From: Dehalococcoidia bacterium | Lineage (GTDB): Bacteria; Chloroflexota; Dehalococcoidia; UBA2979 | Assembly (NCBI GenBank): GCA_964291495.2 | Contig: OZ219871.1 | Span: 1,376,001 to 1,440,000, forward strand | DNA: 64,000 nucleotides | Direction of reading: 5' to 3' | Shown: positions 15,466 through 56,631 of the stretch, one piece after another | Position numbering within the stretch: the first letter of the stretch is position 1 | Layout of the letters: every line of letters starts with the position of its first letter | Translations under genes and position numbers: made by a program | Notes under the pieces: generated by a model | The model's database searches: none | What the model saw: the letters and a program-made list of their open reading frames with translations, nothing else | Told to the model about the DNA's origin: nothing

Positions 15466-17562
15466 GTGTCTCGCGAAACCCCGCTCGAGCGCGTCCGCAA
15501 CATCGGCGTGATCGCGCACATCGACGCCGGCAAGACCACCGTGACCGAGCGCATCCTCTACTACACCGGGCGCACGCACCGCCTTGGTGAGACGCATGAC
15601 GGCACCGCCGTCATGGACTTCATGGCGCAGGAGCGCGAGCGCGGCATCACCATCACCTCGGCGGCCACCACCGCCGAGTGGCGCGACCACCAGGTCAACA
15701 TCATCGACACGCCCGGCCACGTCGACTTCACCGTCGAGGTCGAGCGCTCGCTGCGCGTGCTCGACGGCGGCGTCGTGGTCTTCGACGGCGTCGCCGGGGT
15801 CGAGCCGCAGTCGGAGACGGTCTGGCGTCAGGCCAACCGCTACGAGGTGCCGCGCATCTGCTTCGTCAACAAGATGGACCGCACCGGCGCCGACTTCGAT
15901 CGCACCGTCGAGATGATCGTCGACCGCCTCGGAGCCATCCCCGTGCCGCTGCAGCTGCCGATGGGCGCCGAGGATGACTTCAGCGGCGTGATCGACCTCG
16001 TCGAGATGCGCGCCATCACCTTCGGCGGCGAGCGCGGCGAGGATGTCTCGGTCGGCGAGATCCCCGGCGCCTTCCAGGACGCGGCCCGCGATGCCCGCGA
16101 TCTGATGATCGAGCGCGTCGCCGAGAACGACGACCAGATGATGGTCTCGTTCCTCGAGGGGCACGAGATCGACGTGCCGGAGCTGCAGAAGGCGATCCGC
16201 CGCGCGACGATCAGCAACGCGATCACCCCGGTGCTGGCCGGGGCCGCGCTGCGCAACCGCGGCGTGCAGCCGCTGCTCGACGCCGTCGTCACCTACCTGC
16301 CCTCGCCGATCGACGTGCCGCCGGTGAGCGCGCACGCGGTCGGTGACCCGGACCGCACGGTCGAGCGCGCCGCCGACGACGGTGCGCCGCTGACGGCGCT
16401 CGCCTTCAAGGTCGTCGCCGACCCGTTCGTCGGCCGCCTCGTCTTCTTCCGCGTCTACTCCGGCGTGGTGCGTAGCGGCGAGCAGGTGAGCAACAGCACG
16501 CGCGGGCGCCGCGAGCGCTTCGGCCGGCTGCTGCGCATGCACGCCGACTCGCGCGAGGACATCCAGGAGGTCTACGCCGGCGAGATCGCCGCGGGCATCG
16601 GCCTCAAGGACACGTTCACCGGCGACACGCTCTGCGACACGAAGCGCCCCGTCGCCCTCGAAGCGATCCGCTTCCCCACACCCGTCATCTCGATCGCGAT
16701 CGAGCCGCGCACACGCAACGACCAGGATCGCCTCGGCGACGCCCTGCAGCGGCTCTCCGAGGAAGACCCGACCTTCCGCGTGCGCTACGACGACGAGACC
16801 GGCCAGACCGTGATCTCCGGCATGGGCGAGCTACACCTCGAGGTGATCGTGGACCGCATGCGCCGCGAGTACCGCGTCGAGGCCAACGTCGGCCGCCCGC
16901 AGGTGGCCTACCGCGAGACGCTGACGCGCGCGCTGCGCACCGAGGGCCGCTTCGTGCGCCAGACCGGCGGCCGCGGCCAGTACGGCCACTGCATCCTCGA
17001 GGTCGCCCCGCGCGAGCCGGGCGCCGGCTTCAGCTTCGAGGACCGCACCGTCGGCGGCTCGATTCCGCGCGAGTACATCCCGGCCGTCCGCCGCGGCGTC
17101 GAGCAGGCGCTCGCCAGCGGCGCGCGCGCCGGGTACCCGGTGGTCGATGTCGCGGTCGCCGTCGTCGACGGCTCGTACCACGACGTGGACTCCTCGGAGA
17201 TCGCGTTCCAGACGGCCGGTTCGCTGGGCATGCGCCAGGCGCTCGATCGCGGCGGCTCGGTGCTGCTGGAGCCGGTGATGAAGATGGAGATCGTGACGCC
17301 GGAGGACCACTTCGGCGACGTGCTCGGGGACATTGGCAGCCGTCGCGGGCAGGTGCTGGGCGCGGAGCCGCGAGGCAACGCGCACGTCATCCAGGCGCAG
17401 GCGCCGCTCGCCGAGACGTTCGGCTACGCCACGGACCTGCGCTCGCTGACGCAGGGCCGCGCGACGTACTCGATGGAGTTCGATCACTACGCGCGCGTGC
17501 CGGACGGGATCGTCGAGGAGATCACGGATTCACGCGTCGACACGCGCGTGGCGGCGGGCTAG
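15466..17562 (+). CDS. fusA: Elongation factor G
   Basis: [34 protein letters not shown]. Confidence 0.98.
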
Positions 17563-17592
17563 GGACGCCCGCGAAGGAGAGGGAGCCGGAGG

Positions 17593-18792
<1,200 letters not shown>

Positions 18793-54930: not shown

Positions 54931-55078
54931 GGAGCGCGGTCGGCCGCAGGCCTCGGCGCTCCGCTATGATGCCGCCCGACGGCGGTCGGCGAACGCGCGG
55001 GCAGGCAAGCGCCGGCGCTGCGTGAGATACTGGATCCAGGCCCGGCGGGTGCGGGCGATCGAAGGGGGAATGCACGTC

Positions 55079-55405
55079 ATGGCGATGCCTACCGACACGA
55101 CGGACGCGACGTTCAACTCGGACGTGATCGAGAACGACGACCCGGTGCTGGTCGACTTCTGGGCGCCCTGGTGCGGCCCCTGCCGCATGGTCGCCCCGAT
55201 CGTCGAGGAACTCGCCGAGGAGTACGACGGTCGCGTCAAGTTCGTGAAGCTCAACACCGACGAGAACCCGATGACCGCCGGCCAGTACGGGATCCGCTCG
55301 ATCCCCACGCTGCTCGTCTTCAAGGGCGGCGAGCCGGTCGGCCAGATCATCGGCTTCCGCCCCAAGGGCGACCTCGCGAAGCAGCTCGACGCCGCCCTCG
55401 CGTAG
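55079..55405 (+). CDS. trxA: Thioredoxin
   Basis: VDFWAPWCGPC, YGIRSIPTL; start 55070, 55079 or 55085. Confidence 0.97.
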   Translation: MAMPTDTTDATFNSDVIENDDPVLVDFWAPWCGPCRMVAPIVEELAEEYDGRVKFVKLNTDENPMTAGQYGIRSIPTLLVFKGGEPVGQIIGFRPKGDLAKQLDAALA

Positions 55406-55495: not shown

Positions 55496-56059
55496 TCAGA
55501 AGTACTTCTCGGCGCCGCCGTAGCCCAGCTGCCGCCCTTGCTCCGTAGCCCTGATGAAGCTCCGCACGCGGCTCTCGAACACCTCCGGGCGCGCCCTGCC
55601 GACATCGATGTACGCCACGCGGATGCGGCGATACGCATCCGAGAAGCCCTGGTAGTGCGCCCACGCCCGATCGTTCGCCCGGATCGCGTCGAGGATGTCG
55701 TCGGGGAACACGAACTCCTCGCGCAGCACCTCCTCGACTGAGGCGCGAACCGAGGGGTGCAGGAGCCCTTCGCCGGCAAGCCAGCGCAGCCGCTCCTTGT
55801 TCAGCTGCGAGTAGCGGCTGCCCCGCTTCCTCGGCGAGAACCGCTGCGCGGCCCGCAACTCGTCCGGCTTCTTGATGATGCTGTCGATCCAGCCGAAGCA
55901 GAGCGCCTCCTCCACAGCGTCGTTGTAGAGGATGCGCGGCTCGCCCGACGCCTTGTTCGGATACACGAGCCAGATCTCGCTCGCGCTGTCGAAGTTGGCC
56001 TCGAGCCACTCGCGCCACGCCCGGCGCTCGGTGACGTAGAGGGTCTCGCCGATCTCCAC
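55496..56059 (-). CDS. YdeI/OmpD-associated family protein
   Basis: WR.WL..N, Y.DAVEEALCFGWIDS, FSPR...S..S..NK.R, P.D...A. Confidence 0.9.
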   Translation of the reverse strand: MEIGETLYVTERRAWREWLEANFDSASEIWLVYPNKASGEPRILYNDAVEEALCFGWIDSIIKKPDELRAAQRFSPRKRGSRYSQLNKERLRWLAGEGLLHPSVRASVEEVLREEFVFPDDILDAIRANDRAWAHYQGFSDAYRRIRVAYIDVGRARPEVFESRVRSFIRATEQGRQLGYGGAEKYF

Positions 56060-56093
56060 CGCGCTTGCCTCGGCGGCCGCGCGCCGACTCCCG

Positions 56094-56537
56094 CTACTTC
56101 TTCTCGATCTTGCGGCCCTGTTTCTCCTCGAGGCGCGCGAGGGCGCGGCCCTTGTCCGGGTGCGGGTCCTTCACGAGGCCGTAGATCTCGCGGCCTTCGT
56201 GGTCTTCTGGCAGGTGTTCGGTGATAGGAAGACCTTCCTCATCGCAGAACAGCAGTCAGTGGCAGTATTTGTACTTCTGCATCTCCTCGCAGGCGCAGAT
56301 CCAGGTGCTCCGCTTTACCTCTTCCTCTTTGTCCTCGTAGAAGTTGCAGGGGCAGAGCGGCCGCCCGAGGTCGTCCACGTGCTTGGCGAGGCCGATCACG
56401 AGGAACTCGGTGATCTCGCGCTGCGGGTGGAGGTATGAGCCGCTTTTCTCGGCGAATTTCTCGACGAACTTCCACATCTTCTGGAGCGATTCGTCGGAGG
56501 CCTGCATGCGGTCCGCATCGGTCGGTTGGTCGACCAT
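56094..56537 (-). CDS. Ferredoxin:thioredoxin reductase catalytic subunit, probable selenoprotein (UGA at 56256-56258 read as Sec94)
   Basis: CPC(62/64), CAC(81/83), C-H-[TGA](92/94) match FTR CPC/CPC/CHC spacing; frame continues LLFCDEEGLPITEHLPEDHEGREIYGLVKDPHPDKGRAL... to TAG at 56094; SECIS-like hairpin follows the UGA. Confidence 0.85.
56216..56255 (-). promoter_or_regulatory. Bacterial SECIS-like element
   Basis: After UGA: GUUC-UGC-GAU-G-AGGAA-GGUC-UUCCU-AUC-ACC-GAAC; stems GUUC/GAAC, GAU/AUC, AGGAA/UUCCU, bulged G, GU in the apical loop 23-24 nt after UGA. Confidence 0.75.
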
Positions 56538-56631
56538 GGCGTCTCTCCGTCCATGCCGTTCGCGCTCTCGATCGAGCGTACCACGGACGCCACCCGCACC
56601 ACCGGGCGAATCGACGAGGATTGCGCGTTCA

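Follow-up and report, generated by a model that had tools for sequence, protein, structure and literature searches.

A probable single-selenocysteine homologue of the ferredoxin:thioredoxin reductase catalytic chain in a Dehalococcoidia genome

Homologues of the catalytic subunit of ferredoxin:thioredoxin reductase (FTR) were reported as a new selenoprotein family in metagenomic sequences of Global Ocean Sampling (GOS) (Zhang and Gladyshev 2008; PMC2398784), the evidence being two single GOS reads, one of which carries selenocysteine (Sec) at both redox-active positions, with predicted selenocysteine insertion sequence (SECIS) elements. Two reviews list a 'Ferredoxin-thioredoxin reductase, CxU' family (PMC9312934 and PMC13188914), the entry in PMC13188914 citing NF041072 with two Sec residues, and BSepDB places the Dehalococcoidia among the selenoprotein-rich bacteria (PMC13326102). 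This study concerns a gene of this kind on the minus strand of a 64,000-nucleotide stretch of the genome of a Dehalococcoidia bacterium (assembly GCA_964291495.2, contig OZ219871.1, positions 1,376,001 to 1,440,000), which is referred to below as the window. An original prediction, made from the letters of the window, had interpreted the gene as encoding a Sec-containing FTR homologue and had stated that such homologues were predicted in metagenomic surveys; the statement was right (PMC2398784), and the interpretation is supported by Cys/TGA pairs at one column, by constraint on the tail behind the TGA, by the Sec machinery and by a hairpin specific to the TGA forms. Overall, with a probability of about 0.9, the product is a selenoprotein and a single-subunit homologue of the FTR catalytic chain, and its UGA codon 94 is, to judge from comparative sequence data, very probably decoded as Sec. 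Literature searches, with subscription journals largely outside their coverage, found no biochemical study of a Sec-containing FTR.

The locus can be compared with four described systems from the reductase side. As in the GOS sequences, the protein belongs to the FTR Pfam/COG family, has Sec in place of a redox-active Cys of the CxC motif, is encoded with a predicted bacterial SECIS after the UGA and has homologues with Cys at the site; in contrast to the GOS read with two Sec residues, the protein has one (CHU), it is seen in a complete genome context, and the one-TGA form is found in 61 of the 104 genomes with a match among 401 evenly sampled genomes of the class, a hand tally that includes an unpublished genome (G271) and counts the TGA irrespective of its column. 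The only NCBIfam model matched was NF041072 (FtrB double-selenoprotein), with a score of 40.6 bits where 160 are required, and the first redox-active position, residue 64, is Cys here (TGC or TGT in all 92 regular-expression matches); therefore, the single-Sec form lies outside the NF041072 equivalog. The cyanobacterial and plant FTR catalytic chains (PDB entries 1dj7, 2pu9, 2puk and 7bzk) have in common with the protein the six-residue signature at identical spacing, the His of the CHC motif and the core fold, whereas the protein has Sec at the position of Cys87, CAC instead of CPC as the middle motif and a 47-residue extension, and no variable subunit was found for it. The ferredoxin-dependent disulfide reductase (FDR) of Methanosarcina acetivorans (4tpu) and the Grx-FDR fusion of Desulfotalea psychrophila (7pwe) are likewise FTR-catalytic-like domains without a variable subunit from non-photosynthetic anaerobes, but they are far more distant (E values of 1.3e-8 and 0.0037, 22–25% identity by fold) and carry fused rubredoxin or glutaredoxin domains, of which the protein has none. 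The kind of selenoprotein has thus already been predicted from metagenomes, and no new category is involved.

A probable FTR-type reductase with a conserved in-frame TGA

The translated gene matches PF02943 (FeThRed_B) over residues 18–101 with 86.1 bits against a gathering cut-off of 22 (E value 2e-24), and it is the sole PF02943 gene that a profile search returned from the source genome. Residues 14–99 align by phmmer with residues 7–92 of chain A of 1dj7 without gaps, and the CPC/CxC/CHC signature occurs at spacings of 19 and 11 with TGA instead of Cys at the sixth position. The original prediction had compared the motif positions 62/81/92 with 55/74/85 of cyanobacterial FTR, and the alignment bears this out with a constant offset of 7. 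FTR catalytic chains in the PDB were matched at an E value of 1e-22 and, with 41–42% identity, are the closest solved relatives both by sequence and by fold. The AlphaFold2 model has a predicted local distance difference test score (pLDDT) of 93 and a predicted template modelling score of 0.86, residues 91–140 lying at pLDDT 91–97, and Foldseek superimposes it on 7bzk_A and 1dj7_A with a probability of 1.00 and a root-mean-square deviation (rmsd) of 1.9–2.0 Å over 88–89 columns. Only the approximately 87–89 core columns align at low rmsd; the conserved 47-residue C-terminal tail is predicted by the model to be confidently folded and has no counterpart in the solved chains. Together, these matches make it quite likely that the protein is an FTR-type Fe–S disulfide reductase.

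Translation with table 11 closes the frame at the TGA at 56258–56256, directly after ...KYCH, at the place where the original prediction had located the last Cys of the signature, here U94. The TGA=U translation continues for the 53 sense codons that had been claimed, and the next minus-strand gene, beginning at 56059, leaves the 34-nucleotide gap that had been noted. At the 5' end, the conservation of the orthologues in the fetched loci of relatives starts at the ATG at 56537 with MV[DE]QPTD.

The comparison started from a source genome of eight contigs and 93.7% completeness. Sixty genomes of relatives were searched, 18 of them from the same genus, and 30 loci were fetched; to these were added 80 loci, the best among 249 in a species-representative genome collection, with titles naming Dehalococcoidia or Chloroflexota metagenome-assembled genomes. 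Collapsing identical coding sequences (CDSs) and removing two false positives of the regular expression left 90 distinct CDSs. An orthologue was found in 17 of the 18 same-genus genomes, and all 17 carry one in-frame TGA, as do most of the same-family genomes. The codon after CH is TGA in 27 and TGC in three of the 30 fetched loci, and in the 90 distinct CDSs the Sec column holds 77 TGA, 12 TGC and one TGT, with the same TGA persisting in relatives down to about 61% identity. Cys/TGA pairs, which had been expected if the codon is recoded, are therefore found at a single column (13 Cys against 77 TGA). The Cys homologues in the protein collection are full length with the whole tail in common, so that homologues do not all end at CH, and a TGA kept in 77 of 90 CDSs is neither an error nor a recent nonsense mutation. 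In the 401-genome sample, every form in 17 further genomes is full length and uninterrupted by a stop, and the remaining matches are insert-bearing Cys forms. The position of the TGA is far beyond chance. The protein alignment of the relatives retains His93 and each of the six Cys/Sec positions, the C62-P-C64 columns being invariant.

The part that is made only if the UGA is decoded shows the constraint of a coding sequence. Across 2926 pairs of Sec forms, the ratio of nonsynonymous to synonymous differences (pN/pS) is 0.22 for codons +13 to +45 compared with 0.29 upstream of the TGA, and therefore the part behind the TGA is translated. The conserved tail that had been anticipated is thus present, with 33 codons past the hairpin under purifying selection, and its motif LPITE.LPEDHEGREIYG..DP.PDKGRA occurs in both the Cys and the Sec forms and not in the solved FTR chains. 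The synonymous component alone (pS) falls to 0.28 over codons +1 to +12, against 0.48 and 0.57 elsewhere in the Sec forms. Elsewhere in this genome TGA is an ordinary stop, ending 2508 of 4521 stop-to-stop frames of at least 300 codons and also the neighbouring plsX and omdA genes.

Contigs from sequencing runs were also compared at the codon. In the RNA-library runs X18 and X19, contigs that are 90–95% alike bridge the codon and leave 56256–56258 unchanged, contigs from an RNA library being no proof of transcription. A T>G difference at 56256, giving a TGC codon, occurs in contigs of X1 (depth 52.7/216.1) and X2 (50.5/53.3), two runs that also contain the sequence of the window. The X2 contig has many further differences, with changes of the Cys-form type across the conserved 12-mer of the hairpin described below, and therefore belongs to another organism; going by such differences, the TGC contigs of X1 and X2 evidently stem from other organisms, putative Cys-type relatives. 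Exact-match contigs of X1 end at 56256 and restart at 56274, and none of the exact-match contigs listed bridges the codon, so that X1 adds no independent support for the TGA. As a separate observation, X18 and X19, which cover window positions 55900–56552, are labelled sponge metagenome, and relatives may live in sponge-associated communities; the habitat labels of X3–X17 and X20–X24, which hold small shares, carry no weight in this.

A hairpin behind the UGA and the selenocysteine machinery

The hairpin at 56243–56223 lies shortly 3' of the UGA and has a G in its apical loop, as a bacterial SECIS does, and it is embedded in the codons of D-E-E-G-L-P-I. Its closest described counterpart is the fdhF element of Escherichia coli K-12, where the UGA is followed by 11 nucleotides and then GGUUGCA-[GGUC]-UGCACC. 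Both elements have a GGUC loop closed by an A–U pair, a single-base bulge in the 5' arm and a spacer of similar length (11 nucleotides in fdhF, 12 here), whereas here the loop lies three nucleotides farther from the UGA, five base pairs instead of four separate the bulge from the loop and the stem sequence is another. In fdhF, G23 and U24 of the loop and the bulged U17 contact SelB.

The association of the hairpin with the TGA is close. Of the 77 Sec forms, 76 carry the near-invariant 12-mer GGAAGGTCTTCC at one common offset; none of the 13 Cys forms does. The Sec forms have the fixed codons GAA (76/76), GGT (76/77) and CTT (76/76) where the Cys forms vary (GGG/GGA/GGC and CTG/CTC). For this reason the claim of native codon usage after the TGA stands only in part: right behind the TGA the codon choice does not look native, with GGT and CTT fixed in the Sec forms, because the SECIS has left its imprint there. 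Among 54 distinct 51-nucleotide sequences, the eight-pair helix can pair in 85.6% of cells, compared with at most 56.7% when the partners are slid, and compensatory changes are seen at 18:34 (UA 41, CG 5), 20:33 (CG 33, AU 2) and 16:36 (GC 17, AU 7). The covariation score was reached by none of 500 shuffles, a control that ignores relatedness. The loop is GGC in L137 and L138, and a second Sec clade (L133–L136; approximately 61–63% identity) carries AUGGGGA-CGGGC-UCCCCAU instead, a helix of 7 base pairs and -10.2 kcal/mol with its loop on the same columns, which arises partly from a Lys-to-Gly change (AAG to GGG). A hairpin of the latter type was not found in the Cys kin L142–L144.

The genome has the means to decode the codon. 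The genes selA (523.6 bits), selB (301.7 bits) and selD (368.3 bits) and a tRNA-Sec (77 bits), which ARAGORN calls as tRNA-SeC with anticodon tca, all score above curated cut-offs, so that the machinery whose absence would have spoken against the original prediction was found in full. The selD gene, on the same contig outside the window (1608812–1609747), has an in-frame TGA of its own (...SCGG-U-AGK...), and therefore the selenophosphate synthetase of this organism is itself a selenoprotein. Within the window, weaker matches to the selB model at approximately 15499–18501 fall on two translation-GTPase genes (contig positions 1391499–1391921 and 1393632–1394501), probably the str-operon genes fusA and tuf. 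A genome-wide regular expression (TGA, 4-base-pair stem, GGTC loop) was tried for listing the selenoproteome and abandoned, since of its 88 raw matches only the FTR gene lies in a real-looking coding context. The features of the locus are collected in Table 1.

Table 1. Features of the Sec-FTR locus, in window coordinates
Feature	Position	Strand	Basis or remark
Sec-containing FTR-catalytic-subunit homologue, complete CDS	56094..56537	minus	147 aa + TAG, TGA=U translation
GGAGAG, Shine-Dalgarno-like motif	56543..56548	minus	5 nt 5' of ATG; read from sequence
Start codon ATG	56537-56535	minus	sequence
C62-P-C64	56346..56354	minus	Cys55/Cys57 of Synechocystis FTR, gap-free alignment to 1dj7_A
C81-A-C83	56289..56297	minus	Cys74/Cys76 of 1dj7_A
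C92-H93-U94	56256..56264	minus	Cys85/His86/Cys87; U94 is the TGA
53-residue C-terminal part, made only if UGA is decoded	56097..56255	minus	contains conserved tail LPITE.LPEDHEGREIYG..DP.PDKGRA
Putative SECIS-type hairpin GAU-G-AGGAA-[GGUC]-UUCCU-AUC	56223..56243	minus	begins 12 nt after UGA; folds and comparison
Near-invariant 12-mer GGAAGGTCTTCC	56238-56227	minus	
Hairpin loop GGUC	56234-56231	minus	
TAG stop	56096-56094	minus	closes frame once TGA is read as U
OmdA/YdeI-family gene	55496-56059	minus	PF13376, 43.5 bits; between thioredoxin and FTR genes
Thioredoxin gene (WCGPC)	55022..55405	plus	PF00085, 114.6 bits; convergent to FTR gene, 0.7 kb away

Exchange between selenocysteine and cysteine

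In a quick maximum-likelihood gene tree (90 rows, 124 columns), in which many forks stay open, a single clade nested among Sec forms takes in all 13 Cys forms. Five other genomes, two of them with a Cys-form FTR, also carry tRNA-Sec and selA, and therefore losing the trait does not account for the Cys forms. One genome with a Cys-form FTR (G055) has two tRNA-Sec matches above the cut-off (C1:2160–2253 and C2:30616–30709).

Two single loci appear to lie at transitions. L146 (G093:C14:34241–34975) has TGC at the Sec column with the SECIS 12-mer intact and an MLFC context, while its congeners L140 and L141 have TGA; to judge from its sequence, Sec was replaced by Cys only recently, leaving a relic SECIS. 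L044 (G036:C79) has TGA and falls within the Cys clade, at the end of a long branch (0.26), with Val at +4 and without the 12-mer; only a weak GAUGG-CGUGC-CCAUC hairpin, shifted by 2–3 nucleotides, is present, and the genome has tRNA-Sec and selA. Either a nonsense mutation or a newly gained Sec may account for this locus.

At codon 98 (56244–56246), four residues after Sec (U-L-L-F-C), 74 of 77 Sec forms have Cys and all 13 Cys forms have Val. A role of this Cys as functional partner of Sec was considered and set aside, the pattern being essentially one event on the tree, with Val in the Sec forms L097, L113 and L133–L136 and Cys kept in the Cys-form L146; the residue may reflect phylogenetic inertia, a constraint on the RNA or a functional partner thiol.

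A broader account of the lineage can be put forward only tentatively, as it is judged rather less probable than its negation. In it, Sec would be the long-maintained prevailing state of the only FTR-type reductase of this Dehalococcoidia lineage, it would have been gained or regained more than once through a proto-hairpin in the E-[ED]-G-L-P codons, and the catalytic intermediate would be a [4Fe–4S] cluster with a fifth, selenolate ligand. Repeated gain would be possible because few synonymous changes turn the proto-hairpin into a SECIS, and two unrelated hairpins do occupy the same columns in the main Sec clade and in L133–L136. Selenolate would be the fifth ligand because Sec takes the cluster-interacting position and not that of the exposed nucleophile. 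To our knowledge, such Fe–Se chemistry is undescribed for any characterised enzyme of the FTR family.

Proposed reaction and alternative readings

In Synechocystis FTR, Cys55, Cys74, Cys76 and Cys85 are the cluster ligands and Cys57 the exposed redox-active Cys, roles that were reportedly assigned in structural studies by Dai and co-workers (2007). To judge from the comparative evidence, SelB and tRNA-Sec would decode the UGA at codon 94 as directed by the small hairpin 12 nucleotides downstream, with its GGUC loop and bulged 5' arm; by analogy with FTR, C62, C81, C83 and C92 would hold a [4Fe–4S] cluster, and C64 and U94 would form a redox-active selenenylsulfide beside it. Single electrons, probably from ferredoxin, would open the Se–S bond, C64 would then attack the substrate disulfide, and U94, at the position of Cys87, would bind cluster iron in the one-electron intermediate and subsequently resolve the mixed disulfide. 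The substrate would most likely be a thioredoxin, such as the product of the neighbouring gene at 55022–55405, a proposal that we favour at somewhat better than even odds. Of 60 distinct loci of relatives, 16 have a thioredoxin-like open reading frame (ORF) within 3 kb, all 16 being TGA forms, and in some relatives the thioredoxin gene is the immediate convergent neighbour, about 450–575 nucleotides from the TGA.

Several results weigh against the reading of the gene as a Sec-decoded FTR homologue. Only two Sec/Cys changes are needed on the 90-row tree, so that the many TGA-bearing kin are not independent. The 25-nucleotide fold has -6.1 kcal/mol at a z score of -1.36, equalled by 21 of 200 shuffles, and a 91-nucleotide stretch gives +0.51 (the validated fdhF mini-hairpin also reaches only -0.24, so that the folding energy of a single sequence tells little here). 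On alignment A1, RNAalifold prefers pairing of columns 21–31 with 40–50, without broken pairs and without compensatory changes; as a candidate SECIS this alternative was ranked lower, having no compensatory changes and only six of its nine pairs in the second Sec clade. Weak folding at the position of the hairpin is seen in the Cys forms as well, in 17 of 21 distinct sequences, with a mean minimum free energy (MFE) of -4.46 kcal/mol compared with -7.32 kcal/mol in the Sec forms, and the E-[ED]-G-L-P codons are for this reason read as predisposed to a hairpin. Since 59 of 60 Sec sequences but also 17 of 21 Cys sequences have an MFE hairpin loop in columns 23–30, that criterion was rejected as a discriminator, and the two forms are told apart only by the 12-mer and by the energy. 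A search of 56000–56600 against Rfam at E values up to 10 returned no SECIS family and only a chance leuA-Halobacteria match of 13.5 bits. The MFE fold of the SECIS region of selD shows no GGUC loop, and therefore there is no common SECIS consensus within the genome. On the side of function, the variable subunit PF02941 (FeThRed_A) had no match in the 93.7%-complete genome, the control in Synechococcus elongatus being positive, and therefore the protein would be an FTR-like single-subunit reductase and not part of a classical heterodimer. Two full-length TrxB-like genes on the same contig (171227–172138 and 541629–542519) reach 283 and 243 bits, under the TIGR01292 equivalog cut-off of 343; they could encode NADPH-dependent thioredoxin reductases (NTR) or ferredoxin/flavin-type thioredoxin reductases, and therefore the FTR homologue need not be the only thioredoxin reductase.

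The alternative that survives best accepts the selenoprotein and questions its partner. The protein may be a disulfide reductase that depends on ferredoxin or another donor and serves another substrate, as proposed for the archaeal FDR-type relatives, and the missing variable subunit, the lineage-specific tail of 47 residues that is not in solved FTRs, the weaker similarity to the M. acetivorans FDR and the Desulfotalea Grx-FDR fusion, the TrxB-like genes and the presence of a nearby thioredoxin in only 16 of 60 loci would all fit such a role. The nearest solved relatives are nevertheless true FTR catalytic chains (rmsd about 2 Å), His93 and the six Cys/Sec positions are retained, and a thioredoxin gene lies close by in the window and next to the gene in some relatives; on balance we regard a different substrate class as unlikely.

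Decoding of the UGA as Cys or Trp by a near-cognate tRNA, or some other read-through, is far less probable. Cys is evidently acceptable at the site, as seen from the 13 of 90 CDSs with TGC or TGT and from the apparently recent TGA-to-TGC change in L146, but the complete Sec machinery in the genome, the fdhF-type GGUC hairpin, which is correctly spaced and confined to the TGA forms, and the use of TGA as the commonest ordinary stop all speak for Sec; moreover, a Cys product would give no grounds for maintaining TGA and a constrained RNA element over 77 CDSs.

More improbable again is a true stop, with a truncated gene or pseudogene making a 93-residue protein without the sixth Cys and the downstream frame a relic. 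ORF calling with table 11 does end at KYCH, and L044, with its TGA inside the Cys clade, its branch of 0.26 and no 12-mer, may be such a case, but for the gene in the window a TGA shared by 77 distinct CDSs down to about 61% identity, the pN/pS of 0.22 in the tail, the predicted folding of the tail with the core (residues 91–140) and the absence of any other PF02943 gene from the genome argue against it. That TGC or TGT was misread or misassembled as TGA in this genome alone, as the single-base difference between TGA and TGC and the TGC contigs of X1 and X2 might suggest, is hardly credible given that the X2 contig is from another organism, that 17 congeneric species in independent assemblies all have TGA, that the TGA-associated SECIS 12-mer is present in the window and that the contigs of the two RNA-library runs are unchanged at the codon.

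In conclusion, the Sec-containing FTR homologues, a category that earlier rested on a few metagenomic reads, are now firmly documented. Standard gene callers truncate the gene at codon 93, the Cys forms stand complete in the public protein sets searched, and the one curated model, NF041072, covers only the double-Sec type; with a single-Sec FtrB model and the SECIS 12-mer together, the gene would be recovered in about 60% of the FTR-bearing Dehalococcoidia sampled. With Sec placed, by analogy, at the residue that contacts the [4Fe–4S] cluster in FTR catalysis, and with natural Sec/Cys pairs that include the apparently just-converted L146, the system is suited to asking what selenium buys in one-electron Fe–S disulfide chemistry.

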